Shown: positions 31,310 to 63,738, counted from the first letter of the stretch. The stretch: 64,000 nucleotides of DNA from Alphaproteobacteria bacterium (GCA_965214705.1 CBDCCI010000002.1:448001-512000); one strand, 5' to 3'. Translations and numbers: made by a program. The notes: generated by a model from the sequence alone, not told the origin.

Positions 31310-31513
31310 GAAAAACACCAATTCATGTCGGGCCAGACTCTGAGGGGCCGACGCTCAAAATGAATGGCTCAAAAGGCTTATCCCTCTGAGCCACTTGCAG
31401 AATTCCGCCGTTGAGCGGGATTTTGCCGCCATGTGATGCAGATTGTTCTGGGAATCGGGACCGCTCTCTGTTCCTGTCGGGCTTCCGAAGACATCGACAG
31501 GGAGAGCGGTCCC

Positions 31514-32172
31514 ATGTCGCTGGGACAGACACTAACCAGATTCTTGAACTCCCTTCAAGGCGATCTCTTCCCGTGGCTTGAGGAGGAGCTCGGGCCACTC
31601 GGCGAGAGGTATCGGCGCTTCGTCACTGTGCTTGAGTTTGCGCGGGTCGAGAGCTTCCTTCCCCATTTTCATGGCCTGCCCGGTCGGCCGGTCGAGGACC
31701 GTGCGGCGCTGGCGCGCGCCTTCATCGCCAAGGCGGTGTTCGACGTACCCACGACACGCGCGCTGATCGAGCGCCTTGAGGTCGACAAGACGTTGCGCCG
31801 ATTGTGCGGCTGGAACTATGCCGGAGAAGTGCCGAGCGAGGCGACCTTTTCACGGGCCTTCGCCGAGTTCTCCGAGAGTGCCCTGCCCGCACGCCTGCAC
31901 GAGGCGCTGATCAAGCAGACCCTCGGCGACCACTTGGTGGGGCATGTCTCGCGCGATTCGACGGCGGTCGAGGCGCGCGAGAAGCCTCAGCGCAAACGCA
32001 AGAAGGAGAAGCCGAAGCGCAAGCGCGGTCGCCCGCGCAAGGGTGAGGAGCGGCCCAAGGAGCAGCGCCGCGTGGAGCGCCAGCTCGACATGACCCTGCC
32101 GCAGATGCTCGACGATCTGCCCAGAGCCTGCGATGTCGGCACCAAGCGAAACGCCAAGGGCCACACCACGTC
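31514..32172 (+). pseudogene. DDE transposase, N-terminal half
   Basis: PSEATFSRAF, SRDSTAVE, GTKRNAKGHTTS; continues in frame at 61276. Confidence 0.9.
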
Positions 32173-32291
32173 ACGCACCTGCGGTGCTAACTATCTGACA
32201 AAGGGTCGTTTTCTCTCCTCCACATTGTTGCATCCGGACGGATCCGTCAACTCCCGGTTCCCTGGCTGCAACCGAAACCGGGAGAGGGGAG

Positions 32292-33416
32292 ATGCCCAGA
32301 ACCCACCTTACGGACGCCCGCGTCCGCGCGCTCAAGCCCCGCAAGACCGCATACGACATTCGCGACGGCAAGCTCAGGGGGGTCGGCCTCCGCGTGCTGC
32401 CCTCAGGCGCCAAGCGCTTCTTCGTCCACTGCCAGCATCGTGGCGAGCGCGTCTGGAAGATCATAGGCGATGCCGCCACCATGGATGTCCGCGAGGCGCG
32501 ATCGCGCGCGGTGGCCATGCTCGCCGCGATCCGTCTGGGCGAGGACCCGCCACGCGATCCCGCCGAGACTCGCTTCGAGGCCATCGCCGAGGCCGCGTTC
32601 GAGCGCCGCAGCCGGCTTTGGAAGGCGGGAACGCTGGCGGTGAACCGGGGCTACCTGCGAAGACAGATACTCCCGCACTTCGCGGGACGGCAGATCGCCG
32701 ACATCGACAGCCGGGACGTCGCCAACTGGTTCGCCTCGCTGCGCGCCACCCCGGTCGCCGCAGACCGGTCCATGCCGGTGCTCTCCGTCATCATGCGCGA
32801 GGCCGAGGCGATGAGGCTCAGGCCCGAGGGCTCGAACCCGTGCAAGGGCATCCGGCGCTACCGCCGCAAGGGGCGCGAGCGCTTCCTGTCGGACGATGAG
32901 ATCCGCCGCTTGTCGGCGGCACTCACGGCCCTTGAGGGGCTGCATCCAGAGCAGGTCGCGGTCGTGCGCCTCCTCCTGCTGACCGGATGCCGGAAGGGCG
33001 AAATCCTGACGCTGCGCTGGTCCGACTACCGAGAGGGGCGCCTGTTCCTCCGTGACTCGAAGACGGGCCCCCGAACCGTCTGGCTGTCCGAGCCGGCCAG
33101 GAACATTCTCGACGCCCTGGAGCGAAAGGACCGCTGGGTGTTTCCCTCGTGCCGGACGGCAGGCCCGCAGGGCAACAACTGGCTGGACCGGTTCTGGTGG
33201 AAGCTCCGCGCCGAGGCGGAGCTGGAGGACGTTCGTCTCCACGACCTCCGCCACACCCATGCCAGCATCGCCCTGCGCGAGGGAGAGACCGTGCTCGCCA
33301 TCGGCCGGCTGCTCGGCCATGCCAGCCCGGAGACGACCCTCAAGTACACGCACCTCAGCGACGCCATGACGATGGAAGCCGCCGAAATCGTCGGCGCCGT
33401 GCTGGAAGGAAACTGA
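32292..33416 (+). CDS. Tyrosine recombinase/integrase (pair 2, first gene)
   Basis: Catalytic R, HxxR, H and Y motifs. Confidence 0.92.
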   Translation: MPRTHLTDARVRALKPRKTAYDIRDGKLRGVGLRVLPSGAKRFFVHCQHRGERVWKIIGDAATMDVREARSRAVAMLAAIRLGEDPPRDPAETRFEAIAEAAFERRSRLWKAGTLAVNRGYLRRQILPHFAGRQIADIDSRDVANWFASLRATPVAADRSMPVLSVIMREAEAMRLRPEGSNPCKGIRRYRRKGRERFLSDDEIRRLSAALTALEGLHPEQVAVVRLLLLTGCRKGEILTLRWSDYREGRLFLRDSKTGPRTVWLSEPARNILDALERKDRWVFPSCRTAGPQGNNWLDRFWWKLRAEAELEDVRLHDLRHTHASIALREGETVLAIGRLLGHASPETTLKYTHLSDAMTMEAAEIVGAVLEGN

Positions 33417-33419
33417 TCG

Positions 33420-34565
33420 ATGGCCGGCAGGGAACGCATGCGGCTGACCGACGCCTCCGTCGAACGCCTCCGTCCGCGAGAACGGGAATTCACCGTCTGG
33501 GACGACCGCACCCCCGGTCTCGGGGTCCGGGTCCGGCCCGGCGGCGGGAAGAGCTATGTGTGGTTGCAGCGATCCGGCGGGCGCTCGAAACGCATCTCCC
33601 TGGGTCCGGTGTCGCTCAGGACCGTCGCAGAGGCTCGCCGGGATTGCCTCGCGCGGCAGCTCGCCCCGGAGCCCGACAGGGAGAGCGTGCCCAGGCGCCG
33701 CGCCCCCTCGTTCCGGGAGTTCGTCGAGGGCGAGTGGAAGGACGCGCATTTCCAGCGCTACAAGCCCTCCACGAAAAAGGGGCACCGCTCACTCCTTGCG
33801 AGGCAGCTGTTGCCGAAGTTCGGGTCGATCCCGCTCGACCGCATTGCCTCCACGCGGGTCAGGCGGTGGTTCGAGGCGTATAGCCGGACCGCTCCCGGCA
33901 ATGCCAATCACAGCCTCGACGTCCTCCGCCAGATCATGAACTTCGCCATCGCGCGCGGCCATGCCGATGCCAACCCGACCGCAGGCATCCAGCCCAACCG
34001 CCGGCCGGAGCTCACACGCTTCCTCTCCCGCGAGGAGATCGCCCGTCTCCACAGGGCGCTCAACGGGCAAGCCGGACGGAGGAACCGCCAGCAGGCCGAC
34101 GTGATCCGGCTCCTGCTGCTGACCGGCTGCCGCAGGGGCGAGATCGTGCGCCTGCGCTGGTCCGAGGTCCAGGGCGACACGCTCATGTTGGCCGACAGCA
34201 AGACCGGTCCCCGGAAGGTCCCTCTCAATTCGCAGGCCCGGCGCATTCTCGAACGGCAGCCTCGGGGAGAGAGTCCGTTCGTGTTTCCGTCGCCGCGCGA
34301 TCCGTCCCGGCCGCGCCACCCCGACCTCAACCTTTGGTACCGGGTCCGGAAGGAAGCCGGCATCGACGATGTGCGCCTCCACGACCTCCGGCACACCGTG
34401 GCCAGCCAGGCGGTGATGAACGGCGTTCCGGTGCCGGTGGTGTCCCGGCTGCTCGGCCACTCCAATGTCCGAATGACCCTGCGCTACGCTCACCTCGGAG
34501 ACCGCGATATCGAACGGGCCGCCGAGAGGGTGGGTCAGGCCATCGCCAGGAGAATGGAGCGGTAG
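33420..34565 (+). CDS. Tyrosine recombinase/integrase (pair 2, second gene)
   Basis: Catalytic R, HxxR, H and Y motifs. Confidence 0.92.
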   Translation: MAGRERMRLTDASVERLRPREREFTVWDDRTPGLGVRVRPGGGKSYVWLQRSGGRSKRISLGPVSLRTVAEARRDCLARQLAPEPDRESVPRRRAPSFREFVEGEWKDAHFQRYKPSTKKGHRSLLARQLLPKFGSIPLDRIASTRVRRWFEAYSRTAPGNANHSLDVLRQIMNFAIARGHADANPTAGIQPNRRPELTRFLSREEIARLHRALNGQAGRRNRQQADVIRLLLLTGCRRGEIVRLRWSEVQGDTLMLADSKTGPRKVPLNSQARRILERQPRGESPFVFPSPRDPSRPRHPDLNLWYRVRKEAGIDDVRLHDLRHTVASQAVMNGVPVPVVSRLLGHSNVRMTLRYAHLGDRDIERAAERVGQAIARRMER

Positions 34566-34699
34566 CCTCAGACCTCACGCCCGGCAAGATCGCGATCGGG
34601 ATCGGGCGCAGCGTAGATCCGTTCGCCGATCACGAACTCGTGCAAGTGGGGGAGCAACGGCAACGGTCGGACGTGGTGAAACATGTCCGAGGGAGGGAG

Positions 34700-35009
34700 T
34701 GCTCCGCGGCCGTTTTCTCCAGAGCCAGACGCCATCGGTGATGTCTGTGCGCGCACCGTGCATTGCCCGGCCTTCGCCACCGTGCAGGGCATGATCCGCC
34801 TCGCCGACGACCATGGTGGCGATCGCCTCGACGCACTCTGCGCCGAGGCCCTCGACCTCAACCGCCTCGCCTCGGGCTTCCTCAGGGAGCGCGTCAAGAA
34901 CGGCGGCGAGCCCGATCCGCCGCGCCCCGAGCACGACGAGACCATCCCCAGCCACGGCAACATCCGCGGTGGCGACTACTACGGCAACAACGGAGGAGCG
35001 ACACCATGA
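34700..35009 (+). pseudogene. istA: IS21 IstA C-terminal fragment
   Basis: HGNIRGGDYY C-terminal signature; stop overlaps the istB start (ATGA). Confidence 0.8.
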
Positions 35010-35791
35010 CGCTGCGACAACCCAACATCGACCGCCTGCTGCAGCTCGGTCTCAGCGGCATGGCCGAGGCCCTGGAGGAACAGCGCGACATCGCCGACGT
35101 CGACCAGCTCGGCTTCAACGACCGCCTCGCCCTGATGATCGAGCGCGAGGCCGAACACCGCGATCACAAAAGCTATCTCGGCCACCTGCGCCAAGCCCAG
35201 TTGCGCATCCGCGCCGACATTCAGGACGTCGACTGCCGCGCGGGGCGCGGCATCGCCCGGACCACGCTCACCCAGCTCGCCGCCGGCGACTGGATCCGCC
35301 AGGGCCACAATCTGATTCTGGGTGGGCCAACCGGGTCGGGAAAGACGTTCGTCGCTTGCGCGCTCGCCCACCAGGCCTGCCGCCAGCACCAGTCCGTCCT
35401 CTATCGCCGCGTGCCTGAGCTGGTCGCCGCCCTCATCCGCGCCCGCGACAAGGGCACGCTCGAGCGCCTGATGGGCCGCCTGGGCAGGGTCTCCCTGCTG
35501 GTGCTCGACGACTGGGGCCTCCAGGGCTTCTCCGCCGAGGGCCGGCGCGACCTGCTGGAGATCGTCGAGCAGCGCCACGGACGCAAGTCCATCCTCATCG
35601 CCAGCCAGATCCCCGTAGACGGCTGGCCGAAGGTGATCGGCGAGCCGACGATCGCGGACGCGGTCCTCGACCGCATCGTCCACAGATACCATGAGCCGGT
35701 TGCTTCGACTCGACTTCGAGTGGTTCGAGGCACCCGGAGAGAAGGCCCCCACCTTCTCTCCGGGAGGAACCGTCAACAACGGAGTGGACGA

Positions 35792-36988
35792 ATGTCAGAC
35801 TATCCAAGCACGACCGCGCTGACAGGCGCGAGGCATAGCACGGTTTACGTTGCTGTGGAGATCAGTCTCAAATCGTGGATTGTGGGAATGCATTGCCCGG
35901 ACGCTTCGGGCGGCTGCATCAGCATCCACAAGCTGGCCACTGCGGACACGGCCGGACTGGTTGAGCTTGCTGGGTCGGTGCGGGAGCGGGTGGCGAGGGA
36001 GCTGGGTGCGCGTCCGCGAGTGATGCTGACCTACGAGGCGGGCTACGAGGGGTTCTGGCTGGCCCGGGACATCGAGCGCCGAGACGCGGAGATCGAAATC
36101 TTCATGAACGATCCGGCGAGCCTGCAGGTGAACCGCCGCGCCAAGAGGAAGAAGACCGATCGGATCGACACGAGGAAGATGCTTCGCGCCCTGAAGGCGT
36201 GGGACCAGGGCGATTCGGAGGCCATGTCCTGGGTACGAGTGCCGGCAGTGGACCGGGAGGACGACAAGCGCCTGCTGCGCGAGAGGGAGACGTTGATCGT
36301 TGAGCGCACGCGCCTCAACAATCGGATCAGGGGGCTGTTGATGCTGCACGGCATCTTCGACCTGGCGCCGCGCCGAGCGGACTTCCTGGATCGGCTTGCA
36401 GCCGCGCGGACCGGCTATGGAGCGCCTTTGCCGCCGCGGGCGCGGGCCGAGATCGAGAGGGCGGTCGCGGTGCTTCGTCTGGTTGAGGCTCATATCGACA
36501 CGATCGAGGCCGAGAAGAAGGCCCTGCTGAAGGCCGGCCGGAAAGCCGTGGACGCGCCGAACCGGGACGGGACGGCGGTGATCGCGGCGCTCACGCGGAT
36601 CCACGGCATCGGCCTCAACGATGCGACGCTGCTGGCCGGCGAGGTGTTTTATCGGGACTTCCGCAATCGGCGCGAGCTGGGCAGTTGGGCCGGCTTGACA
36701 TCGGTACCGTGGGCGAGCGGCGGGGTCGATCACGATCTCGGCATCAGCAAGGCCGGCCCCTCGCACATCAGGAAGCACATGATCCAGATGTCGTGGCGCT
36801 GGTTGAAGCTGCAACCGGAAAGCGGGATCACGAAGTGGTTCCATGCCTATGTCGCCAGAGCTGCCAATGGTGGCAGGGACAAGCGCGCCAGGAAGCGCGC
36901 GATCGTCGGCGTCGCGCGCAAGCTTCTGATCGCGCTGTGGCGCTACGCCACCCAGGGGCTGGTGCCGGAGGGCGCCATCGTCTCGTGA
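35792..36988 (+). CDS. IS110-family recombinase
   Basis: VEISLKSW, YEAGYEGFWL, KTDRID, WASG. Confidence 0.92.
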   Translation: MSDYPSTTALTGARHSTVYVAVEISLKSWIVGMHCPDASGGCISIHKLATADTAGLVELAGSVRERVARELGARPRVMLTYEAGYEGFWLARDIERRDAEIEIFMNDPASLQVNRRAKRKKTDRIDTRKMLRALKAWDQGDSEAMSWVRVPAVDREDDKRLLRERETLIVERTRLNNRIRGLLMLHGIFDLAPRRADFLDRLAAARTGYGAPLPPRARAEIERAVAVLRLVEAHIDTIEAEKKALLKAGRKAVDAPNRDGTAVIAALTRIHGIGLNDATLLAGEVFYRDFRNRRELGSWAGLTSVPWASGGVDHDLGISKAGPSHIRKHMIQMSWRWLKLQPESGITKWFHAYVARAANGGRDKRARKRAIVGVARKLLIALWRYATQGLVPEGAIVS

Positions 36989-37330
36989 CGGCGTTGGCCG
37001 AACGAGAAGGAGACAACACGAGGTTCCGACGCGGTCGGACGCGACCGCGGAGGATGCCGGGCAAGGCGTGTGACCGAATAGGCGTTGGGTTGCCGAATGG
37101 CACCGTTCCATAGATGGGTCCCGCCTCCCGGAACGTCGCGACCGCCTGGATGCGGTATTGGGGTCGCGGAGCCGGCGAGAGCCGGAGCTCCGAACCGGAT
37201 AAGAGTTGAGCAGCGTGACGAGCCGCTGCGTGGAAAAGACGTTCTGCCTGGACATCGGCCGCGGATGCGAGTGGGGAGATCACGAATGCCATTCACGTAA
37301 ATGAAGTCGGGCCTTGCAGAGAGAGCTCAT
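36989..37330 (+). ncRNA. Putative bridge/seek RNA
   Basis: NCR contains ATAGGCGTTG (37078-37087), the reverse complement of the reconstructed target CAACGCCTAT. Confidence 0.75.
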
Positions 37331-37680
37331 AAGACGCCTATCGCATCGAGCTCAAGGGAGAGTCCCAGCGCAAGCGCAACAAGCCCCCGCCACTCGACGG
37401 CGGCGGCAACAGAGCCCCGGCCTGACGGCCGGGGTCCATGGGCGCCTGCGGCGCCTTCCGGGTTGCGAGGCCGGTGGCGCGCGGCGGCATGCTGTGTGTG
37501 AGAGCTTGCCGCCGCGCCCCGCCGGCCGTTTGCATGCCCAAGAGGCCTCGCATACGCTCGGCTCGGGCTGGCCAAAGGCCAGCCCCCCGACATCACCAAG
37601 GGGAGGGTCACACCGCCAAATCCGGGAGAGACAGCGCGCTGGCGCGCGCCTGCGCCACGGTCAAGTGTTGCCAGAATCCC

Positions 37681-37726
37681 GGTCAAATAAAATCAGAATC
37701 GGCGGTCAAATAAACCGGAATCCGCA
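37681..37726 (+). repeat. IS21 right end
   Basis: Two GGTCAAATAAA-N-GAATC repeats terminating in CA. Confidence 0.75.
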
Positions 37727-37835
37727 GGAGAATGCCGTTCGCTCTTCATGGCGTCTGATCCTGCCCGCCGGGGCTTGCTCTGGCGCCGGATTTCATGCAA
37801 TGGCTTGGAGCGGCAGAAGCGAAGGTAGGTTCGAA

Positions 37836-38450
37836 ATGGAAAAGGTGTTCATCTATTGGGACAATTCGAACATCTTCATCAGCGCTCAAGAAGTCGCGAG
37901 CGAACGGGAAGGGGTAGAGACCCGTTACAGAGTGCGCGTCCAATTCCGAAACCTGCTGGAACTGGCGCGGGCCGGCCGCGATGTCGAGCGGGCGATCGCC
38001 GTCGGTTCCATTCCCCCGGAGTTGCGGCACGTCTGGAACCGATTGGAAAATGAAGGTGTCACCGTTCAGTTGCTGGAACGCGGCGCGATGGAGCGCCGAG
38101 AGCAGGGCGTCGACCAAACCCTGCAAACTGCGATGCTGCGCGATGCGTTCGACTACAACGGATCGCCGGGAATCGCGGTCATGCTCACCGGCGACGGCAG
38201 CGGCTTTCATGACGGCGTCGGTTTTCATGCCGACCTGGAGCGCATGCACAGTCGAGGATGGCGCATCGAAGTGCTGTCGTGGCGACATAGCTGCAACCGC
38301 CGGATGCGGGAATGGGCGGAGCAGAATGGCCGGTTTGTCGCCCTGGATGACTATTACGAGAGCGTAACCTTCCTTGAACCGCCGCCGCCGGGCCAGCCCA
38401 TCGCCGACCCGCGCCATGCGGTTCCGGTCAACCTGGACGACCGCTTGTGA
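37836..38450 (+). CDS. NYN-domain (PIN-like) putative ribonuclease
   Basis: IYWDNSN, EQGVD and LTGDG acidic motifs. Confidence 0.8.
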   Translation: MEKVFIYWDNSNIFISAQEVASEREGVETRYRVRVQFRNLLELARAGRDVERAIAVGSIPPELRHVWNRLENEGVTVQLLERGAMERREQGVDQTLQTAMLRDAFDYNGSPGIAVMLTGDGSGFHDGVGFHADLERMHSRGWRIEVLSWRHSCNRRMREWAEQNGRFVALDDYYESVTFLEPPPPGQPIADPRHAVPVNLDDRL

Positions 38451-38559
38451 TCCGGCCCTGCGTCTGCATGGCTCGCGCCGCGCGTTCGCGTCGGAGTTGG
38501 TGACGGGCGGCGAAACCGCGGGTGCTGAAGGGTGTCGGGGTTGATGAGCCGCCGGTTCG

Positions 38560-38790
38560 AGACCCAGCCGGCGGCGAAGCGGAGTTTGACCCTCCCGCCA
38601 ACGACCTCGACATAGCGCTCGAGCGTCTTCAGCGATGGCACATGACCGGGGCCACGGTGTGCTGGTTCATCTTCATCCCTTTGGCCACTTCGCTCTGGGT
38701 CAACCCAGCCGTGACACGCGCCTTGATGAGTTCCCGACGCCGGCTTGAACTCGGGTTTCGGAGCGTCGGTGCCGGTGGCATCATATTGCC
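38560..38790 (-). pseudogene. XRE/HTH regulator remnant, divergent from cas6
   Basis: LIKARVTAGLTQSEVA and, in another frame, PSLKTLERYVEVVG. Confidence 0.65.
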
Positions 38791-38836
38791 GGAACCGGAC
38801 GGAGCGGCCGTCCGCCTGACGATAAAGGCCCATGGT

Positions 38837-39478
38837 ATGAACGGGACGCTCGATGTTTTCTTTCGCGTCATTGGCGCGGAAGCGCCTGCCGACCATGGCT
38901 ACGCGCTGTTCGGCGCGATCTCCCGCATTCTGGAGACGGAGGACGACCGCTGGATGCACGGCAACCCGCATGTCGGCCTCCACACTATCCGCGGCGCGAA
39001 TCTGGGGAACGGCCGGCGCTTGATTGGCTCCGGCGCGCGCTTCGGCCTGCGCCTGCCGTCAGAGCTGTTGCCCCGTTCTCTGAAGTTGGCCGGAAAATGC
39101 ATCGACCTTGATGGTTGCAAGCTGCGCGTCGGCGTCGGCGAGATCCGAGCCTTGGTCCCAGCGGCAACGCTGCACTGCCGAATAGCGACCACCAAGAACG
39201 GTGACGATCCCGCTCGCTTTGACGGCCAGATCGCCCGGCAGCGCGCCTCTCTCGGCATTCGCGGCAATGTCATGCGCGCGCCGGAGAGTGCCGCGCGAAG
39301 CGACAGACGCGACCCGAGTCGCCGCATCCTCCGCGTGAAGGGCAAGCGGATCGTCGGTCATGCCCTCCTCGCGACGGAACTGACGACCGAGGAGTCTATC
39401 CTGCTTCAGAAACGCGGCCTCGGTGGCCGGCGGCGGATGGGATGCGGGGTGTTCGTGCCGGTGACTGGGAGGCCTTGA
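38837..39478 (+). CDS. cas6: Cas6, MYXAN type
   Basis: PADHGYALFGAI, C-terminal GLGGRRRMGCGVF. Confidence 0.92.
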   Translation: MNGTLDVFFRVIGAEAPADHGYALFGAISRILETEDDRWMHGNPHVGLHTIRGANLGNGRRLIGSGARFGLRLPSELLPRSLKLAGKCIDLDGCKLRVGVGEIRALVPAATLHCRIATTKNGDDPARFDGQIARQRASLGIRGNVMRAPESAARSDRRDPSRRILRVKGKRIVGHALLATELTTEESILLQKRGLGGRRRMGCGVFVPVTGRP

Positions 39479-39540
39479 CAATTGAGGCATCGGGCTGTAG
39501 TTGGTGGCTCGTCCATGCCACTAACACTATAAGGGAACAA
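39475..39540 (+). promoter_or_regulatory. Putative promoter/RBS region containing the mini-array target
   Basis: TTGACA at 39475, TATAAG at 39528, AAGGGA before ATG 39542; the -35/-10 pairing is not canonical. Confidence 0.5.
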
Positions 39541-39541
39541 G

Positions 39542-39730
39542 ATGATGCTTGGACGCAGTTGGGTACAGGTGTCTCACCGGAAATGTGTCTATGAGGAGTG
39601 GTGCGAGGAGACGGTGAGGGAGTGGTCCGAGCAACCAGAATGGCGCGGGCCGCAGAGGCCAGTCAGGAAGGCCGACGCCCTGTTAACCGTAAGACCACGA
39701 GCACCTCATGATCTTGAGACTGAGGAGTGA
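39542..39730 (+). CDS. Small orphan ORF (62 aa), candidate CRISPR-repressed toxin
   Basis: RBS-like AAGGGA; stop codon lies inside pseudo-repeat 1. Confidence 0.45.
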   Translation: MMLGRSWVQVSHRKCVYEEWCEETVREWSEQPEWRGPQRPVRKADALLTVRPRAPHDLETEE

Positions 39731-39823
39731 TGCCGAAAGGCGTTTTGCACGTGTTCGTGGCATGGGTGGTCTGATGTTGCCTGACTCCTTCAACCAGTGA
39801 TGCCGAAAGGCGTTCGCGAGCAT
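39726..39823 (+). CRISPR. Degenerate one-spacer mini-array (CreA/CreR-like)
   Basis: AGTGATGCCGAAAGGCGTTTTGCAC and CAGTGATGCCGAAAGGCGTTCGCGAGCA resemble the 3' part of the main repeat. Confidence 0.85.
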
Positions 39824-51613: not shown

Positions 51614-51627
51614 CGGGGTCCTGGAAG

Positions 51628-53283: not shown

Positions 53284-54426
53284 ATGAGTTCCACCGACAA
53301 CAATGGAAACCAGTCCCCGCCGCCGGACGATGAGGATCGCAGTCTTCTGTTCGGCCCCACGAAGGCCGCAGCGGAGCGGGCTGGTGACAGGCAGAAGCCG
53401 CGCCGACCACATGCGGGTGCCGCGTCGCCACCACCCCCTAATTCCCCGCCCGCGGCGGAGGCGGCCACGGACCCTGCGGGCCGGGCCAGGCCGGGCCCGT
53501 CATCGGACGTTGCGCCGACCGAGGTCGCGTCGTCCGACGCGGTTCTGCGTCGGATGCTCGCCCTGTTGGAGGATATGGACAAGAAGGTCGCGGTCTTGTC
53601 GGCTGGCGAGACCGATCTTGCAGCGGCAGCCCGGACCATCGCCGGGCAAACGGAGCAGGTCGGCGCGGCGACCGAGTGGGTCAACGACATCAAGGCGGCG
53701 ATTTCGGAGATCCTGGCGTCGACCGGCAAGCAGATCGAAGGGCTGAAGAGCGGGAACAGGGATCTCGACGCGGCGCTGGCGCAGCTGAATGTGCTGAAGG
53801 AGGGGCTGGACAAGGTCGTGGCGTCGCTCGACGCCACGGCGAAGGGCCTCGGCAAGAGATCGTCGGAGTTGGGGGCGGTCAAGCAGGAACTCGCCGGGTA
53901 CTACCGGGAGTGGATCGCCGAGGCCAGGACCAGCCTGGGCGAGATGAGGGCGCTGTCGAAGCGTCTCGACGCGGGCGATCACATGGTGACCCGTCTGGAG
54001 ACGTCGATCGGCCCCTGGACCGAGCGCATGGAGGAGAGCATCGGGGCGAACAGCGCGGCGCAGCGCGATGCTGCGGCGAAGACCGCCGACAACGTGGACA
54101 AGCTCGCCATGACGGGCTTCAGGTTCCTGCAGGAATTCGGCACGGCCAGGGGGGACGCGCTGAAGGAGGCCCGGCAGGAGTGGACGCGCATTCGGCGCTG
54201 GACGCTTCCGGCTCTGGCAATCGCGCTGGTGATCGCCGCGCCGCTGTTCGTGTTTGCGGGCGCGCTTGGGCAGAGCGAGTTCGGCGTATTCGCCCCCTAC
54301 GACGACACCGGGGGCTGGAAGCAGGGGGTGTGGGAGCGTCACGGCCAAAAGGTCAAGGACTGCATGCTCAAGTCCTGGCGGGCGGGCGAAGTCGTCACAT
54401 GCAGCTTCGACATCCGGCACCCGTGA
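53284..54426 (+). CDS. Coiled-coil protein with C-terminal TM helix, upstream of the relaxase
   Basis: AGGAG RBS, helical Ala/Leu-rich body, hydrophobic LAIALVIAAPLFVFAG. Confidence 0.7.
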   Translation: MSSTDNNGNQSPPPDDEDRSLLFGPTKAAAERAGDRQKPRRPHAGAASPPPPNSPPAAEAATDPAGRARPGPSSDVAPTEVASSDAVLRRMLALLEDMDKKVAVLSAGETDLAAAARTIAGQTEQVGAATEWVNDIKAAISEILASTGKQIEGLKSGNRDLDAALAQLNVLKEGLDKVVASLDATAKGLGKRSSELGAVKQELAGYYREWIAEARTSLGEMRALSKRLDAGDHMVTRLETSIGPWTERMEESIGANSAAQRDAAAKTADNVDKLAMTGFRFLQEFGTARGDALKEARQEWTRIRRWTLPALAIALVIAAPLFVFAGALGQSEFGVFAPYDDTGGWKQGVWERHGQKVKDCMLKSWRAGEVVTCSFDIRHP

Positions 54427-54472
54427 TCGGCGCGGCGAACGCGGCAGCTCTTGCCGCCAAGGGCCGAGAGGC

Positions 54473-57400
54473 ATGGTCGCGAGCCTGAGCGATCTCGGCT
54501 CGAGCGCGATGACGGTCGCGTATTTCGAGCGCGAGGGCTACTACGCGAAGAACGATCTCCGGCACCGGCGTGCGAGCTTCTGGCACGGCGGGGGGGCGGC
54601 GGCGCTGGGCATGCCCAGGAATATCTCGCCCAGGACCTTCGAGCGCGTTCTTGCCGGCTACGTGCCGGGAACGGAGATCCGGCTCGGCCGGGCGCGCGGC
54701 GGGGAGCACGAGCACCGGCCTGGGCTCGACCTCACGCTGTCCGCGCCGAAGTCGGTGTCTCTGGAGGCGCTGCTCTACGGCAACCGGCAAGTGCTGAGCG
54801 CCCACGACGCGGCGGTCAGGTCGACGCTGGCCTGGGTCGAGGCCGAGCTTCTGCAGACGCGCGGCTATGACCCGGCGACAGGGCGGCGCCCGCGGGAGGC
54901 GGCGGACGGCCTGGTGGCGGCGGGGTTCCGGCACCTGACGAGCCGGGACCAGGACCCGCAGCTGCACACGCACTGCGTCATCGCCAACATGACGCGCAAC
55001 CGGGCCGGGGAGTGGCGGAGCGTGGAGCCCACGGAGATCCGCCGCAACGTGAAGCTGATCGGCGCCTGTTACCGCCACGAGCTGGCGCGGCGGCTGATCG
55101 ATCTGGGCTACCGCACGGAGACGACGATGATCGGCGGGGTCCCGGGCTTCGAGATCGCGGGCTACCCGCGCGCGCTGCTGGACACGTTCTCGTCGCGGCG
55201 CCGCGAGATCCTTGCCTGGCTGGACGAGCACGGTCTGCCCTACAGCGCGGCGCTGACGCAGCAGGCGGCGCTGATCACGCGCAAGCACAAGGTCGACAAG
55301 GATATCGACGCGCTGAAGACGGAGTGGAAGGGGCGGGCCGAGGGGATATCTCATGACCGCAGCCTCTCCCGGCAGGATCGCGCGCAGGACAGGCGCCAGT
55401 CGCGAGAGACCCACAAGGGCCGGCCCTATGTAAGGACGGAACAGGAGCTGCGGCCCGACCACCAGGGTCTCAGCCCCCGCGAGATCGTCTGGCGGGCGGT
55501 GGAGCATCTTGCTGAGCGCGCGTCGGTGCTGCGGGAGAGCGATATCCGGGCGATCGCGCTGAGCCATGCGCCTGGCCGGCACGAGCTCGGCGAGATCGAC
55601 GCGGCGGTGACGGGGCTGCTGGCTGACGGCCACCTGGTGGAGGCCAGGGTGCGGAGCGGCCGCTCCTTCGTGACGGGCGAGGCGCTGCGGTCCGAGCGCG
55701 AGATCGTGGTCCGCATGCGCGATGGCGTAGGTGCTGGGGACGCGCTGGCGGAGGAAGCGCGCGTATCGCATCGAATGGAACAGACCACCCTCACCGAGGG
55801 TCAGAGGGAGGCGGTGCGCACGATCCTGCTGTCGCGCGACCGGATCGTCGCGGTGCAGGGCGCGGCGGGGACGGGCAAGACGACGATGCTGCGCGAGGCG
55901 CTGGACCTTATCGGCGAGCGCAAGGCGATCCTGCTCGCGCCGTCGTCCGCCGCGGCGCGGGTGCTGGCGGACGAGACCGGCGCCAGGGCGCGCACGCTGC
56001 AATGGTTCCTGACGCGCTACGGCGACATCGGCAATGCGCAGAAGATGGCCAGTGCAAGGCGCGAGCACGAGGGCTCGGTGCTGGTGCTGGACGAGTCGTC
56101 GATGACGTCGACGGCGCAGATGCAGCTCCTGATGCGGATCTCGGAGCGGCTGCGCGTCGCCCGGCTGGTGCTGGTGGGCGACCGCGGCCAGCTGCGCGCG
56201 GCCGGTGCGGGCGAGCCCTTCCGCGCCCTGCAGGATGCGGGCATCGCGATGGCGGAGATGGACGAGATCCTGCGCCAGCGCGATCCGGGCCTCAAACGCG
56301 CCGTGGAGGCCCTGCAGCAGGGCCGGGCGGCGGAGGCGGCGCGGGAACTCGAAGTGCGCGAGGTGGCGCACGAGGAGCTGGGGGCGGAGGCGGCCCGGCT
56401 CTGGCTCGCGCTCGACGGGGAGCAGCGCGAAGGAACGGCGATCCTCGCGCCCACCCACTTCCTCCGCGCCGAGATCCACCGCGTGGTGCGCGAGGGGCTC
56501 GCCCGGGAGGGAGTCCTGCACGGCCGCGAGATCGAGATCGAGCGCTACGTGAACCGTCACCTGACGGCGGCCCAGAGGGCGGACGTGCGCAACCACGAGC
56601 CGGGCGACGTGGTGATCTTCCACTCGCGGGTGCCGCCGCTCAGGGTGGACGAGGGGGACGCCTGCCGGATCGCCCGCGCCGAAGGCGGGCTGGTCTTCCT
56701 CGAGCACCCCTCGGGGCGCACGGTCCACATCCGGCCGGACGACCACTGGGTGCGCTACCGTTTCGGGATCTACGAGACGGCGCGCATCCGCATCCGTGCG
56801 GGCGACCGGGTCCGCTGGACCAGGAACGACAGGCGGCACGGCCTCTTGAACGGCGGGGAGGCGGTGGTGGTGGGGATCGACTCCCGCCGGGTGAAGTTCG
56901 ACCTCGGCGGCGGAACGCGGCTGTCGCTTTCCCGCGACGACCCGCAGCTTCGCCATATCGACCACGCCTGGAGCACGACGGTGCACGGGGCGCAGGGCAT
57001 GACGCGGGATGCGGCGATCGGGGTGCTGGATACCGGGCACGGCCGTCTGACCGGCCAGGCGGGGCTCTACGTGGAGGCGAGCCGGGCGCGGGACCGCTTC
57101 GTGCTGGTGACCGACAACCGGGAGAGCCTGGAGGAGGCGCTGGAGGAGAACGCGGGTATCCGCATGACGGCGCTGGAGGCAGTGGGGGACGACGATGCGC
57201 CCCCCGGCCCGGCTGATGCAACCATCGGGATGCTGCGCGAGCTGAGGGACGACTGGCGTGCCCTCGTGGCGCGGGCCGGGGCCGAGCGTACCGCGCTCGA
57301 CCGGATTGACGGCTACGCCCGGATCGTGACCGGCGTACATGCCCTTGCGGCCGGCCCGGATCTGCCGCCGGAGATGCAGGGCTTCGTCGACGAGGTGCGT

Positions 57401-59632
57401 GAGCGGGACGCCGGGATCGTGGAACGGCGGCGCGACGCGCTGGCCTTCGTGCACGAGGCGGAGATGCACTGCCGCCGGCAGCCTCTCCTCAAGTGGGCGG
57501 CGGAGGAGCGCGGCGTGGCGGTATCCGCGCTGCCGGAGCATGCGGCGTGGCGGGCCGAGGGCGCGGCGCTGGAGGAGACCGGTAGGCGGATGCAGGAGAC
57601 CCCGGGCTTCTTCGGGCGGATCGCGGCCGCTCTGGGGCGGATCGCGCAGGGCTTCCGGCTCGACGAGGGAGAACGGTTTTGCGAAGCGGCCGCCCGCCAT
57701 GAGGCGGAGGCGCAGAGACTGGGGATCGACCCCGGCGGGATGGCGGGGGCGGCGGGGCTCGTGCAACGGGCGGAGGCGCTGGGGCGCCACGAGCTCCCCG
57801 AAGCCGTGCGCCGGACGGTCGCGGCGTGGGTCCCGATCGCCGAGCCGTCTTCTCGGGAAACGGTGCAACGACTCACTCCGGACGACCTTGAGGCCGGGCG
57901 CCGCATCGAGGCGTTCCTGCGCGACTGCCGGCAGTGCCTGGAGGCAGCCGTGCCTGCGGCGCAGGATCTGGACCCGCGGATCGACGCGGCTGAACAACTT
58001 CGCCGCGAGGGACTTCGGCTGCTCGGCGAGGGCGAGGGAGCGAAGCTCGACGATCCGGCGCGTGCACGCCTGTCCCGCGCAGCCGACGAACGCGAACAAG
58101 TGCGCGAGGCCGTACACGCGCTGGCGGCTGAGGTGCAGGCGCTCCGTTCGCGGGCGTTCATGGAACTCAGTGGGAACGTCACCCGGCAGGGCCTCGAGGC
58201 GCACTGCGATCCGGTCGACTTGCCGGCATGGGCGGACTTGCGGGATCGCGCCGAGGCGCTCCGGGGCCAGGCGGGCCTCGCGCCGGACGCGCGGGAGGCG
58301 GTCGATGCGGTGCTCGCCCGTGCCGCCCGCGTGGAGGCCGAGATCGCCCCCGTCAAGGCTCTCATCGAAGACGGCGCCCGGCACCTGGATCGGCGCGCGG
58401 CGCTGGACGAAGGGCGCGGCATCGTCGAGCCTCCATCCCCGGATGCGGTCCCGGTCTGGCGGGAACGCTCGCGGGAGCTTCGCGAGACCGCCCTTCATCT
58501 TCTGGGAGAGTCGCCGGCCGACACCCGGGAGATGCTGGCCGCAGCCAGGCTTGCCGACATGCCGCGGCTTCAGGGCGGCGTCCGGGAGGTGCTGAACCGG
58601 TTGGAGACCCTGGAGCTGCGCGACGAGGTCGCGGAGTTCCAAAAGCTTGCGGCTACGGTCGAGCGGCGAGCCAGGCGGCAGGAAACGCTGCCACTGCACG
58701 CCGAGGGCTACGGCCAGGTGACCGCGATGGCGCAATCCCTCTCCAGCAACGCGGTCTTGCCGGAAGCAGAACGCCATCAGGCGGCGGCGTGGCTCGACCG
58801 CGATCAGGGCTGGAACGAGGAGCTCGCCTCGGCGCGGAAGCTCACCGCGACGCAAGAGCAGGATGTCGACACGACGGGCCTTGCCGAGGCCCTCCGCGAG
58901 GCCGCGCACCTGCCCGCCGTGAGGTCGGCCATCAGGCAGGAAACGGCCCTGCTCGCCCGCTCGCCGATGCCGGAGCAATGGACGGCGTGGACCGGCGACG
59001 AGCCCTTGGTCGCAGGCGACCGCATCGCCTGGCGCGCTGGCGGCACGGTGCACCGGGCGGCGGTGTCGTTCCCGGGGGAGACCGGCGGCATGCGCGCGAA
59101 CGACACGCTGTTGGTGAGAATCGTGCAGCCGGCGGACGGGCCCGCTCTTGACGACGCAGGCCGGATCGTAGAGATCCATGCTCAGGCCCTTCGGGACGTC
59201 AGATGCGTCCGCGCCGAATGGTCCGACGAGGGGCTCAGGCAGCTGGAAACCGCCCTGCAGTACTCCGTGCCCAGCGCCGCCTGCCCGCTCGCCTGTCCTG
59301 AGCCCGTCGCGGGCGACCGCATCGCCTGGACCGAGGCCGCCGGCCGGAGCGAAGAGGTGCGCACGGTCGAGGCCGTGGTCGCCACACGGACCGAAGTCTC
59401 CGACGAGCACGAGTTGGGGCTGCGGGTGATCCACGCCTCAGGTCCCGACGCGCCGGAGCCCGGCGCCTCGATCCGGCGCACCGCAGACGAGGTCACCGCG
59501 CGCGGCTGCTACCGCGCCGCGTGGTCCGACGAGACCCGGCGCGAGGCCGAACTCGACCCGCAGAAGGAGGTGCGGGAGCAGACCCTGAAACAGGGCCTCG
59601 AGCACTCCCGCGGCGGGGGGATCGGCATGTGA
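54473..59632 (+). CDS. MobF (TrwC/TraI) relaxase-helicase with long C-terminal extension
   Basis: YF..EGYY, DLTLSAPKSVS, H..SRDQDPQLHTH, QGAAGTGKT, TVHGAQG. Confidence 0.92.
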   Translation: MVASLSDLGSSAMTVAYFEREGYYAKNDLRHRRASFWHGGGAAALGMPRNISPRTFERVLAGYVPGTEIRLGRARGGEHEHRPGLDLTLSAPKSVSLEALLYGNRQVLSAHDAAVRSTLAWVEAELLQTRGYDPATGRRPREAADGLVAAGFRHLTSRDQDPQLHTHCVIANMTRNRAGEWRSVEPTEIRRNVKLIGACYRHELARRLIDLGYRTETTMIGGVPGFEIAGYPRALLDTFSSRRREILAWLDEHGLPYSAALTQQAALITRKHKVDKDIDALKTEWKGRAEGISHDRSLSRQDRAQDRRQSRETHKGRPYVRTEQELRPDHQGLSPREIVWRAVEHLAERASVLRESDIRAIALSHAPGRHELGEIDAAVTGLLADGHLVEARVRSGRSFVTGEALRSEREIVVRMRDGVGAGDALAEEARVSHRMEQTTLTEGQREAVRTILLSRDRIVAVQGAAGTGKTTMLREALDLIGERKAILLAPSSAAARVLADETGARARTLQWFLTRYGDIGNAQKMASARREHEGSVLVLDESSMTSTAQMQLLMRISERLRVARLVLVGDRGQLRAAGAGEPFRALQDAGIAMAEMDEILRQRDPGLKRAVEALQQGRAAEAARELEVREVAHEELGAEAARLWLALDGEQREGTAILAPTHFLRAEIHRVVREGLAREGVLHGREIEIERYVNRHLTAAQRADVRNHEPGDVVIFHSRVPPLRVDEGDACRIARAEGGLVFLEHPSGRTVHIRPDDHWVRYRFGIYETARIRIRAGDRVRWTRNDRRHGLLNGGEAVVVGIDSRRVKFDLGGGTRLSLSRDDPQLRHIDHAWSTTVHGAQGMTRDAAIGVLDTGHGRLTGQAGLYVEASRARDRFVLVTDNRESLEEALEENAGIRMTALEAVGDDDAPPGPADATIGMLRELRDDWRALVARAGAERTALDRIDGYARIVTGVHALAAGPDLPPEMQGFVDEVRERDAGIVERRRDALAFVHEAEMHCRRQPLLKWAAEERGVAVSALPEHAAWRAEGAALEETGRRMQETPGFFGRIAAALGRIAQGFRLDEGERFCEAAARHEAEAQRLGIDPGGMAGAAGLVQRAEALGRHELPEAVRRTVAAWVPIAEPSSRETVQRLTPDDLEAGRRIEAFLRDCRQCLEAAVPAAQDLDPRIDAAEQLRREGLRLLGEGEGAKLDDPARARLSRAADEREQVREAVHALAAEVQALRSRAFMELSGNVTRQGLEAHCDPVDLPAWADLRDRAEALRGQAGLAPDAREAVDAVLARAARVEAEIAPVKALIEDGARHLDRRAALDEGRGIVEPPSPDAVPVWRERSRELRETALHLLGESPADTREMLAAARLADMPRLQGGVREVLNRLETLELRDEVAEFQKLAATVERRARRQETLPLHAEGYGQVTAMAQSLSSNAVLPEAERHQAAAWLDRDQGWNEELASARKLTATQEQDVDTTGLAEALREAAHLPAVRSAIRQETALLARSPMPEQWTAWTGDEPLVAGDRIAWRAGGTVHRAAVSFPGETGGMRANDTLLVRIVQPADGPALDDAGRIVEIHAQALRDVRCVRAEWSDEGLRQLETALQYSVPSAACPLACPEPVAGDRIAWTEAAGRSEEVRTVEAVVATRTEVSDEHELGLRVIHASGPDAPEPGASIRRTADEVTARGCYRAAWSDETRREAELDPQKEVREQTLKQGLEHSRGGGIGM

Positions 59633-59731
59633 GCCAGCCAGGCCTGCACCGCTGCCTCCAGAGAGAGCATGTTCGGATATCCCGTTCAAGCTGCTTGCCG
59701 GGGACGCGTCCGAGGACGATCGCAGCGTCGC

Positions 59732-60178
59732 TCAACCGAGCGGCGGCGGCTTGCGCGCCATCCAGTCCCGGAACTGCCGCTCGACCACCGGCCCGGCGTC
59801 CGGGCCGAACACCGCCACGAGCAGCGGCCCGAGCTCGTGCTCCCGGCTCTGCAGTACGAGGTCGTCCAACGTCGTCATGAGCAGCAGCTCGACCGACTGC
59901 CGCAGCCGTTCGATCGACCCTCCGGAGGCCGCCGACAGCATGCTCTCGGCCAGGCGGTCCACACGGTCGAGCAGCCGGCGCTGTTCCGCCTCGCTCAGCG
60001 CCAGAGCCGGCGCGTTCGCCTGCGCGGGGTCTAGCTGCACGTTCAGCCCCGCCGAGATCACGTGGTCGTTGATGGACACGTCCCGGCTCTCCGCGACCTC
60101 GCGGATCCGTTCCCACTCCGATTCCAGGCACGAGATCGCAATCCGCGCTCGGGGCGTCGCGGGCCGCTCCGCTATCAC
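59732..60178 (-). CDS. RHH/MobC-like protein
   Basis: IAISCLESEWERIREVAESRDVSINDHV pattern. Confidence 0.6.
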   Translation of the reverse strand: MIAERPATPRARIAISCLESEWERIREVAESRDVSINDHVISAGLNVQLDPAQANAPALALSEAEQRRLLDRVDRLAESMLSAASGGSIERLRQSVELLLMTTLDDLVLQSREHELGPLLVAVFGPDAGPVVERQFRDWMARKPPPLG

Positions 60179-60495
60179 GGGCCGCTCCGGCGCGACTGGA
60201 TCGCGCGCTGTATGAAGGCGATCGCGCCGAACACGGAAAGGTCGGTGCCCGACAGCGACTCCCCCAGCGCGCGGCGCACCCGGTCCATCTCCTCCACCCG
60301 CTCGTACAGGGTCCGCTGCTGTTCTTCCGACAATACCAGCCGCTGCTCGTCCTGGCGCGGCCCGCCCGCGTCCTCGTGCAGCGCGCAGGCGACCAGGTAT
60401 CCCGAGACCGGCATGCCGAGCGCGGTCGCGCGTTCCCTGATCTCGGCCCTCTCGGCCCGGCTGCAGCGCAGCGTGCGGCGCACCACGTTCCCCAT
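60175..60495 (-). CDS. RHH/MobC-like protein
   Basis: RTLRCSRAERAEIRERATALGMPVSGYL pattern. Confidence 0.65.
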   Translation of the reverse strand: MGNVVRRTLRCSRAERAEIRERATALGMPVSGYLVACALHEDAGGPRQDEQRLVLSEEQQRTLYERVEEMDRVRRALGESLSGTDLSVFGAIAFIQRAIQSRRSGP

Positions 60496-60498
60496 CGC

Positions 60499-60882
60499 TC
60501 ATGGCTGCGGCACGGGGCCGCCCTCGGGATCGGCGCTCACCGAGACCGCGCGCCAGCGTTCGGCGGCGCCCGGATCGGTCAGCCGGTCGAGCTCCGCCTC
60601 CCGGTCGAGCCACGCATCGACGGCATCGCCGAGCGCCTTCCAGCGCTCCTCCAGCCCCATGTCAGCCATGCGCCGTTCCTCGATCTTCGCGAGCAGCAGA
60701 AGCTCGCGTACCGCGCGGCGCAGAACGGTATCGGGCAGCGGGTCTGCCACGGTCGCCCTGTGCACGATGTAGCGCGATATATCCATGCCCGCGTCGGCCG
60801 CGAGTTCGCGGATGCGTGCCCATTCGCTCGCGGTCGCCATCACCGCGTGCTGTGTGCGGCGCTCCGCCGGCCTGCGCCTCAT
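60499..60882 (-). CDS. RHH/MobC-like protein
   Basis: VMATASEWARIRELAADAGMDISRYI pattern. Confidence 0.62.
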   Translation of the reverse strand: MRRRPAERRTQHAVMATASEWARIRELAADAGMDISRYIVHRATVADPLPDTVLRRAVRELLLLAKIEERRMADMGLEERWKALGDAVDAWLDREAELDRLTDPGAAERWRAVSVSADPEGGPVPQP

Positions 60883-61275
60883 GAGAGCGCCCCGGAGGCA
60901 GTGCGACACCGTGTGGAACCCCTCCCCAAGCCCGCATTCCGGCCACAACCACCTGTATTTCTCCATATAATGTAGATGAGACGCTGCCATCCCGATACGC
61001 CGCGGCACGCCATCGCCTTATCGCCTCCACATAAGCGTGTTTCCACCGCAACTCCTCCGCAACGACAGATCCATCTGCCCAGACATACGCCTTTAGTTCC
61101 CAGATTGCAACTGATCGGTTCGAAGCCTAAAATTTTATATCAGATAAAAAACCGCCACAATCCTCTTGTGAAACGACCCAATCACCTGTAATGTAATACA
61201 TATGCAGGAGAGAAAACGATCCAGTCCACCCCCTGACGCACTCCAGCTATATCGAATTCAGGACCACACCACGTC

Positions 61276-61747
61276 GTGGATCGGCTACAAGCTGCACATC
61301 GATGCCGCCGATGGCGGCATCCCGGTCAGTTGCATCCTGACGTCTGCCTCGCTGCACGACAGTCAGGTCGCGATCCCGCTGGCGACCATGAGCGCCGAAC
61401 GCGTGACCAATCTGTACGATCTCATGGACTCAGCCTACGACGCGCCTGAGATCGGCTGGCACAGCTATCTGTTGGGCCACGTTCCAATCATCGACATCAA
61501 TCCCCGGGACAGGGGCTTCAAAGAGGACTTGGCGCGGGAGGCCAAGGCGCGGCGCCGTATCGGCCACAGCCACCCGGCGGACGACCGTTACAGCGAACGC
61601 TCGAACGTCGAGCGCATCAATGGCGGGCTGAAGGACAACTGCGGTGGACGCCATGTCCGCGTGCGCGGCCATGCCAAAGTCTACTGCCACGCGATGTTCG
61701 GCATCCTGGCGCTGACGGTAGACCAATTGGTGCGCCTTCTGACTTGA
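61276..61747 (+). pseudogene. DDE transposase, C-terminal half
   Basis: WIGYKLHID, HDSQ, MDSAYD, VERINGGLK. Confidence 0.9.
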
Positions 61748-62169
61748 ACCTCACTTTCGGTTCTGTCCCTGTCATGCCGGAACACGCCTCCCTCGATGGG
61801 GGCACGGAGAGCCGCGCCCGCATCCCGGCGCCGGGCCACGAATGTGACCGCAACGGCCCTCGCTCGCGACAAATCGGCTCCCCGACGGTGGCCATGCGGC
61901 ATGTCGAACCGTCGATTCGACCGATCGTTCGCGTTACGTTCGACCAACCGCTGCCCTCATATCGAACTCCCGGGATGAACGCACCGTGCCCGAGAGTTTT
62001 GCAAGTGGCTCCCTCTGGCTCCGGTTCCCCAACATGTTGTACCGATCACCTCGGCGGCGGTATCCGACACGGTCGCAGTTCCTTCCGTGTCTCAATGGGT
62101 TGCCCGTAAAGTGCCCAGCGATCCGGCACCCCACATATGGAGAAGCCGGATGTAAGGGGATAAGCCTTT

Positions 62170-63735: not shown

Positions 63736-63738
63736 GGC

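Follow-up and report, generated by a model that had tools for sequence, protein, structure and literature searches.

A CRISPR-carrying two-integrase element inside an IS1182-like insertion sequence and its probable family of ACACC-inserting relatives

Elements with P4-like integrases are usually regarded as strictly site-specific, often at tRNA genes, and CRISPR-Cas systems on integrative or conjugative elements are already known. For Tn916, carry-over of the coupling sequence and the use of many target sites are established features. Among the systems closest to the locus described here are CTnDOT, with a conserved dinucleotide and a 5-bp coupling sequence (PMC2817482), and the SE (strand-biased circularizing integrative) elements, in which the attB spacer comes to lie at attL and the donor spacer at attR, the “fingerprint/footprint,” and of which SE-6945 prefers insJ of IS3 in E. 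coli, a precedent for the gene of an insertion sequence (IS) as landing site (PMC9345347, PMC10214605). The IntSXT/P4-like subgroup of integrases is defined by an N-terminal DUF4102 and a catalytic domain (PMC8138268). Here, we describe a 29.1-kb insert in the transposase gene of an IS1182-like IS, found in a 64-kb stretch (C3:448001-512000, hereafter the window, whose numbering applies to all positions without a contig prefix) of an alphaproteobacterial genome of 3 contigs and 7.92 Mb (GCA_965214705.1). We consider it probable, at roughly 70%, that the insert belongs to a family of two-integrase elements which enter at ACACC plus five variable bases (N5) by conservative tyrosine recombination and carry the coupling sequence over from one site to the next. 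Judged by this comparison, the insert would work like CTnDOT or the SE elements, but differs from the SE elements in gene content, host and copy number, and from CTnDOT and Tn916 in having two integrases of the P4/IntSXT subgroup.

The IS extends from 31388 to 62011 and is interrupted after 32172, the insert occupying 32173-61275 (29,103 bp), so that the transposase is broken between KGHTTS and WIGYKLH. The left IS half (31388-32172, + strand), encoding the N-terminal part of the transposase with DUF772, stops with ...AAGGGCCACACCACGTC at 32172, its last ten bases being the attL core ACACC (32163-32167) and the coupling sequence ACGTC (32168-32172); the right half (61276-62011, +), encoding the DDE part from WIGYKLH onward, restarts with GTGGATCGGCTACAAGCTGCAC at 61276. 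A 12-nt direct repeat, CCACACCACGTC, stands at both junctions (32161-32172 and 61264-61275). At its outer ends, the IS has kept the terminal repeat GAGCCACTTGCAGAATTC at 31388-31405 (GAGCCACTTGCA...) and an imperfect inverse of it at 61994-62011, the two matching by inspection at 16 of 18 positions with the first 12 identical, and both are bordered by the target duplication CCTCT (31383-31387 and 62012-62016). The transposase carries DUF772 and DDE_Tnp_1 domains; its top NCBIfam model is IS1182, at 115 bits below the cut-off of 270, and its closest annotated relatives, at 43–52% identity, are named “IS1182 family transposase.”

Two intact copies of the host IS exist in the same genome (C3:402041-403561 and C1:605008-606536), and the 403-aa transposase of an intact copy runs uninterrupted over the break point (...KGHTTSWIGYKLH...). 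Consistently, deletion of 32173-61275 in silico yields a 1521-bp IS with an open 403-aa frame, differing from these copies at 4 and 17 positions, respectively. The first-pass annotation of the window, which had placed a CRISPR element precisely inside the transposase gene with a direct repeat at both junctions, had noted the 18-bp IS ends and the CCTCT duplication, and had expected clean excision to restore the gene, is thus borne out. Its reservation that the halves might stem from two different copies is not upheld: they are parts of one IS copy, because the miniature inverted-repeat transposable element (MITE) that served as IS target has an uninterrupted paralogue (C1:793243-793399) holding a single CCTCT.

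When the insert was compared with its own genome by blast, its first ~2.4 kb recurred about 20 times at 74–96% identity, starting from base 1 or 2, and its last 0.3–0.7 kb about a dozen times, ending within the last few bases. The first and last 250 nt as blastn queries found 21 left and 13 right ends, and a profile search gave 36 and 14. The recurring left part holds two tyrosine integrases, Int1 (374 aa; 32292-33416, +) and Int2 (381 aa; 33420-34565, +), which are 41% identical, show the R, HxxR, H and Y motifs by inspection and stand 3 nt apart with no gene in between. All domain scores exceed the Pfam cut-offs (Int1: Arm-DNA-bind_3/DUF4102 44.5 bits, Phage_integrase 74.2 bits; Int2: DUF4102 32.7 bits, catalytic domain 84.6 bits), which assigns both to the IntSXT/P4-like subgroup. 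By tblastn, the genome contains 126 integrase-like loci with 44 adjacent same-strand pairs, 28 of them ordered Int1-type then Int2-type. The other 16 pairs (e.g., C2:473839-475075, C2:539367-540608 and C1:1981859-1983034) are more distant, with ~40% identity to Int1, different upstream ends and no ACACC pattern, and appear to form a separate family with another target. The insert is one of 36 elements with the same left end in this genome and a conserved Int1-Int2 pair at that end.

The two ends are equally characteristic. The left end (32173-32291, +), kept in all family members, consists of A-CGCACC-TGC-GGTGC (palindrome 32175-32187), TAAC and a subterminal inverted repeat, GGGTCGTTTTCTCTCCT, at 32203-32219; the right end (61009-61275, +) contains the inverse of this repeat, AGGAGAGAAAACGATCC, at 61206-61222, followed by ...GGACC-ACACC (ACACC at 61266-70) and the coupling sequence ACGTC (61271-75). 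Subterminal repeats of the GGGTCGTTTTCTCTCC type were present in all seven paired elements examined, ~30 nt from the left and ~55 nt from the right tip, and terminal inverted repeats were not found at the extreme tips of these elements. DNA homology common to the family stops at ~34557, about the Int2 stop codon, and beyond Int2 nothing is conserved family-wide except a ribbon-helix-helix (RHH) gene at the far end, a homologue of RHH2 lying within ~0.5 kb of 13 of ~16 known right ends and reading inward.

Relatives are widespread in the genus. All 20 other genus genomes searched gave a match, and full-length integrase pairs occur in at least 10 of them among the matches listed; named relatives are metagenome-assembled genomes titled Defluviicoccus sp., Rhodospirillales or Alphaproteobacteria bacterium. 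In a sample of 401 genomes of the class, just three contained the junction motif (33, 10 and 1 matches), and the reversed control gave no match. Of the relatives in other species, the closest (in G017) has nothing but the integrase module in common with the insert, at 94% identity; its flank is non-IS and its cargo different. Within the genome, the closest copy of this module is 94.7% identical, the closest pairs of the family reaching 97–98.6%. A literature search, which did not cover subscription journals, turned up no account of elements with tandem DUF4102 integrases and none of mobile elements from this genus.

The common denominator of the insertion sites is ACACC+N5. This exact arrangement precedes 34 of the 35 anchored left ends of the profile set, in differing flanks, and all 21 left ends of the blastn set; among 13 right ends, 12 end in CACACC+N5 and one has CACGCC. 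Junctions from the genome itself were pooled with those of related loci (71 junctions from 80 loci) to give 119, with 105 unique flanks and 104 anchored, and ACACC stands at a fixed distance in 93 of the latter (76 at the modal spacing, 17 shifted by one). The same motif recurs in other species of the genus, and in the junction logo N5 and everything upstream of ACACC are essentially without information. The left flanks span five or more different repeat families and comprise the host IS, repeats of ~100, ~50 and 65 copies, a related 88%-identical IS entered at its other ACACC, the integrase gene of another element and low-copy DNA. A preference for ISs or repeats as such was considered and rejected: of 600 random 400-bp segments of the genome, 209 had at least 2, 124 at least 5 and 91 at least 10 copies (the last at an identity of at least 80%), and the 7 of 21 left flanks lying in repeats are no significant excess over 124 of 600 (p=0.12).

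How N5 is distributed between the two junctions bears directly on the mechanism. In empty-site paralogues, the left flank with its N5 is contiguous with the right flank; the N5 of the target is consequently retained at attL, and the (C)ACACC+N5 at attR comes in addition. At attL, N5 equals that of the target in eight of nine cases, the ninth being 1 nt off a 92%-identical paralogue, and at attR it does so in five of eight testable cases. In the remaining three it is foreign, i.e., ATCAC vs. GCCAT, TTAAC vs. GAGAC, and GAGAC(+G) vs. AGACG in the target. The foreign TTAAC recurs as N5 at a site that was entered several times, both here and in another species, and the foreign GAGAC as N5 in the empty paralogues of another occupied site; a rough estimate puts the chance of both matches at 0.0025. 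In seven of nine paired elements, N5 is identical at both ends, four of these seven residing in multi-copy repeats. Moreover, closely related elements with left ends of the GCGCACC type have N5 nearly always ending in CG (GGACG, AGACG, GTGCG, GCGCG, TGACG, ATGCG, GCTCG), also where integrase modules 97–98.6% identical sit at different sites, and left ends of the ACGCACC type have N5 ending in C or T. The final CG may point to a further need for identity, on the far side of the overlap.

Three other origins of the junctions were considered and discarded. Homologous recombination in the interior is excluded, as N5 is external to the element; an exchange limited to ACACC does not agree with an attL N5 that follows the target and not the element; and duplication by staggered cuts fails as a universal mechanism, as foreign N5 stand beside flanks whose paralogues read otherwise. 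Since these are excluded, conservative tyrosine recombination with a carried-over coupling sequence remains. In such a scheme, ACACC would give the identity for the first strand exchange, and the 5-nt coupling would be brought along from where the element last resided, as in CTnDOT, Tn916 or SE elements; the target's N5 would stay at attL, and the element would end in (C)ACACC plus the donor N5 at attR. A strong preference for a matching coupling could keep an element hopping among identical sites, e.g., the copies of one IS. Int1 and Int2 would probably form one heteromeric recombinase, possibly assisted by RHH2 as directionality or accessory factor. The joint of the excised circle (61275 to 32173) is expected to read ...GGACCACACC + ACGTC + ACGCACCTGCGG.

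Several points weigh against this interpretation. ACACC occurs 12,550 times in the genome, so that something beyond it must guide the choice of site. The carry-over is read from three foreign coupling sequences in all, one of which (GAGAC followed by G, in place of AGACG) could also be a 1-nt insertion, and the asymmetry between attL and attR (0/9 vs. 3/8) is not significant (p=0.08). Where the strands are cut, whether both integrases are required and what RHH2 does are inferred. Furthermore, neither an excised circle nor an empty site nor a de novo insertion was seen in the assembled contigs of public runs. Contigs of four runs (X17, X18, X1 and X3) were compared with 30500-47900, and one each in X17, X18 and X1 stops matching at 32172 and goes on into the right IS half; these are uninformative on excision, because the intact IS copies explain the join. 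Finally, the nearest copy of the insert's integrase module is only 94.7% identical, and the cargo contains IS debris and gene fragments; this 29.1-kb copy may no longer be mobile.

The first-pass annotation had gone further and taken the IS transposase gene for the dedicated attachment site of the element, in a role like that of a tRNA gene. The perfect 12-nt repeat is in line with this, and so is the finding that the same position of the IS is occupied in a second copy with a different outer flank (C3:400443), whose integrase module is 95% identical, i.e., ~5% apart. Likewise, the 65-copy IS was hit three times at one position (ACACCGACAA; C1:3355696, C1:655650 and C3:2067572) by related elements of a 60%-identity subfamily, one of which pairs with the right end C1:3391608 to give ~36 kb with a perfect repeat. 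A dedicated site is nevertheless improbable and largely refuted by the family survey, given that the ACACC-anchored left ends lie mostly in unrelated flanks and only two of them in this IS, that the nearest relative from another species has a different flank that is no IS, that the logo carries no information beyond ACACC and that repeats are not enriched among the flanks. A weaker form of the idea survives: each strand of the host IS has a single ACACC motif, both of which family members have used, and at the position studied here two of four copies reading ACACC are occupied and none of 30 related copies reading ATACC. Couplings that are identical at the two ends likewise suggest hops from one identical site to the next. 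The IS is better seen as an opportunistic, perhaps homology-favoured landing pad than as a dedicated att site.

The remaining alternatives concern the history and the reality of this copy. A fossil, integrated once and now immobile, with old family copies and junctions that merely record history, is possible but less likely. The identity values of the integrase modules given above would fit it, as the IS copies are 99–100% identical, and so would the truncated IS21 with an IS110 inside, the Mutator transposase fragment and the truncated TmtA gene of the cargo, as well as the sister element at C3:400443, whose integrase pair is interrupted by 2.3 kb of inserted DNA and for which no right end was detected; the fossil reading is opposed by full-length open frames for Int1, Int2, RHH1, RHH2 and the 1792-aa relaxase, by intact termini and coupling repeats, and by a cas operon and array that look complete. 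The further proposal that IS and 29-kb passenger move as one 30.6-kb unit, with transposase supplied in trans, can draw on the intact IS ends and 5-bp duplication and on the two intact copies encoding a full transposase. The composite is, however, present once, with no second copy found in the genome, the other occupied IS copy holds a 5%-diverged element and lacks the right IS half, and an IS that arrived first, followed later by the element, accounts equally well for the CCTCT duplication; joint movement is very unlikely. Even less credible is a false joining of IS half and element end by the assembler. The genome is extremely repeat-rich, with more than one copy of about a third of the random segments (209/600), and no contig listed from the four runs spans 32172/32173; but both joints are typical of the family (ACACC+N5, conserved ends), the couplings match, and the IS halves are complementary to the base, none of which is to be expected from a misjoin by chance. 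In addition, the interior 37653-47900 is found at 100% identity in a 10-kb contig of X17, a run that may be the source sample and may thus not be independent.

The SE elements resemble the family in a left end with a pair of tyrosine recombinase genes, in their modest target specificity and in their variable cargo. As there, the target spacer is found at attL and the donor spacer at attR (here the target's N5 in 8/9 attL and a foreign one in 3/8 attR, p=0.08). In contrast, the cited SE literature describes intA-tfp-intB and srap, a T-rich spacer of 6 bp, 1–2 copies per replicon, Gammaproteobacteria as only hosts and elements reported as non-mobilizable, whereas here Int1 and Int2 directly adjoin with nothing conserved behind them, the site is ACACC plus 5 nt, and the family, which includes this member with a relaxase, belongs to Alphaproteobacteria and numbers 36 copies in a single genome. 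The NCBI “gamma-mobile-trio” integrase model, whose link to the SE elements is our guess, scores 25.8 bits on the element at a cut-off of 600. Conjugative transposons of the Tn916 type resemble the family in their arm-binding tyrosine integrase, a conserved core at one edge of the overlap, a variable 5-bp coupling and many targets, and the same features are described for the CTnDOT/NBU type (PMC2817482). Both types differ in having a single integrase of another subgroup, hosts among Bacteroidota or Firmicutes, and end couplings that normally differ, compared with two DUF4102 integrases and couplings identical in 7/9 paired elements here.

Tn554 and GInt need more than one tyrosine recombinase and make no true target duplication (PMC10214605). 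They are nonetheless built differently, Tn554 with tnpA-tnpB-tnpC and GInt with four genes, and are site-specific or use other targets. To our knowledge, neither has a DUF4102 arm-binding domain. Integrative mobilizable elements of the SGI1/MGI type with P4-like/IntSXT integrases have a DUF4102 integrase, a relaxase without a type IV secretion system (T4SS), dependence on a helper and defence cargo in common with the insert, but one integrase and a fixed attB (tRNA gene, trmE, yicC and the like) instead of two integrases and a 5-bp core. Tandem pairs like Int1/Int2, annotated only as integrase, are further present on plasmids of Shewanella, Vibrio, Novosphingobium, Paracoccus and others. On the Shewanella oneidensis MR-1 megaplasmid and on pP6W1 of Novosphingobium sp. 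P6W, adjacent integrases are 36–42% identical to Int1, and (C)ACACC with a short palindrome lies 160–190 nt upstream of the Int1-like gene, which may be chance (~0.2 per locus); the pP6W1 pair precedes HEPN/NTase and DRT3 (Drt3a/b) defence genes.

Behind the integrases, the insert begins with IS debris (34770-37724, +), identified by IstB_IS21, Transposase_20 and multi-copy matches: a truncated IS21-family element (istB 34770-35684, end 37334-37724) split by an IS110-family IS (35683-37334), the segment 35684-37334 being omitted in one X18 contig. An open reading frame (ORF) with a NYN domain (aa 177–324; 37314-38450, +) overlaps the IS21 end with its 5' part, and its true start is probably later. 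It is followed by a type I-B/MYXAN cas operon (38522-47739, +), all genes of which score above the NCBIfam cut-offs (given after each score): cas6 (38522-39478; cas6/cmx6 model, 152 vs. 99), cas3 (39822-42242; 160 vs. 102), cas8 (Cmx1/Csx13; 42131-44149; 102 vs. 81 and 53 vs. 47), cas7 (DevR; 44146-45090; 139 vs. 73), cas5 (DevS; 45009-45773; 118 vs. 112), a cas4-cas1 fusion (45773-47458; 459 vs. 358) and cas2 (47269-47739; 39 vs. 25), all on the + strand. The CRISPR array (47988-49394, +) has 20 repeats of 36 nt, the last degenerate, and 19 spacers, with the leader on the cas2 side. Operon and array together make up a complete CRISPR-Cas locus of type I-B/MYXAN. A blast search with the 19 spacers in the own genome gave no convincing self-target and two weak partial matches (25–27 nt, 2–3 mismatches). 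Among the genus genomes searched, the cas region has an 82% partial match in one only (G015), a genome without a close integrase pair.

A second defence gene probably follows in 5'-truncated form, namely a 690-aa ORF (49315-51387, +) which matches TmtA of Tiamat in PADLOC (E 1.2e-71) over profile positions 443–1056 of 1063, i.e., the C-terminal two thirds; its listed start overlaps the array, no match was found in Pfam or NCBIfam, and an 81% relative is present in another genome (G005). Domain matches identify an HTH_37 regulator (51484-51966, +) and a Mutator-family transposase fragment (52185-52640, +). The mobilisation module (53284-60034), 96–97% identical to two other loci on contig C1, comprises a coiled-coil ORF (53284-54426, +), a TrwC/MobF relaxase-helicase of 1792 aa (54254-59632, +; MobF 252 bits, cut-off 100) and a conserved ORF (59669-60034, +), and the NikA-like RHH1 (60175-60495, −) and RHH2 (60499-61008, −), again identified by domain matches, close the cargo. 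Among the 24 ORFs scanned, no T4SS or type IV coupling protein (T4CP) domain was detected, and with two integrases, CRISPR-Cas, MobF relaxase and RHH genes all found in the domain scans, the gene inventory of the first-pass annotation stands. From this inventory, integrase plus relaxase and no mating-pore genes, the insert is probably an integrative, mobilizable element. Transfer would then take place with help of a conjugation system encoded elsewhere in the genome, where 11 T4CP matches, 4 strong TrbI matches and 4 VirB4-like loci were found, several of these conjugation loci adjoining TrwC-type relaxases; the VirB4-like and TrbI loci were detected with the TIGR00929 and TrbI profiles, the PF03135 profile finding no VirB4. 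What remains of the mobilizable defence element proposed by the annotation is accordingly a discrete, probably mobilizable element inserted precisely in an IS, the claim that the IS is its attachment site being unsupported.

The insert is part of a deeply nested arrangement, which from outside in reads 94-kb element, MITE, IS1182-like IS, 29-kb element, IS21 fragment and IS110. The MITE is ~170 bp long, has terminal repeats AAGGCTTATCC / GGATAAGCCTT and occurs in ~35 copies at about 98–99% identity; comparison with its paralogue places its left 16 nt (with TIR AAGGCTTATCC, the last 5 nt being CCTCT) at 31372-31387 and its remainder, starting with the second CCTCT, at 62012-62169. The whole window is enclosed by a further family member of 94.4 kb (C3:418592-512979) with the direct repeat ACACCTGACG at its ends. 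Its left end, at C3:512979, lies 979 nt past the window, and its Int2 (62584-63735) and the start of its Int1 are visible by homology at 62584-64000 on the − strand; its right end, at C3:418592, carries an IS 14 bp from the tip and is confirmed by a 156-nt match of 79% identity to the right end of another member. Besides ISs and the IS with the CRISPR element, it contains polysaccharide-synthesis genes (12989-25237) and another family member, E4 (C3:439524-460883; window 1-12883, −; Int1 11640-12764, Int2 10467-11636), with coupling sequences TCAAC and TTAAC. The cargo of E4 includes a DUF1156 adenine methylase (69-3041) and an SNF2 helicase (3044-6232) which match the PADLOC models HmaB/HmaA, DrmD and BrxH, and on these matches E4 is a second member carrying a defence system, of Hma/DISARM-like type. 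Elsewhere in the window, an ORF at 25547-27340 joins a DruA-like N-terminal region to DDE_Tnp_1 domains and is probably an IS with an unusual N-terminus.

In summary, the insert is most likely a dual-integrase, ACACC-targeting, coupling-carrying integrative mobilizable element with defence cargo. Its conserved P4-like pair behaves like a low-specificity transposase that recognises only ACACC, and the family has reached 36 copies in one genome, nested in each other and in ISs and carrying whole defence systems. For annotation, it follows that a perfect 12-bp repeat within one gene is no proof of a dedicated att site and that the family should be surveyed. More speculatively, the family could represent an undescribed alphaproteobacterial class of transposon-like elements driven by a heteromeric P4-like pair, in which the choice of target is “imprinted”: the coupling taken from the last site, beside the fixed ACACC, would direct the next insertion to places sharing all 10 nt. 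Should this tentative reading be true, multi-copy ISs would be ready-made landing pads on which the elements multiply to dozens of copies per genome, taking CRISPR-Cas, Hma/DISARM-like and Tiamat systems with them. If the coupling re-programmes target choice, it would amount to a simple, naturally occurring way of retargeting site-specific integration and would explain how large defence islands spread in the IS-rich genomes of uncultured, symbiont-like Alphaproteobacteria.

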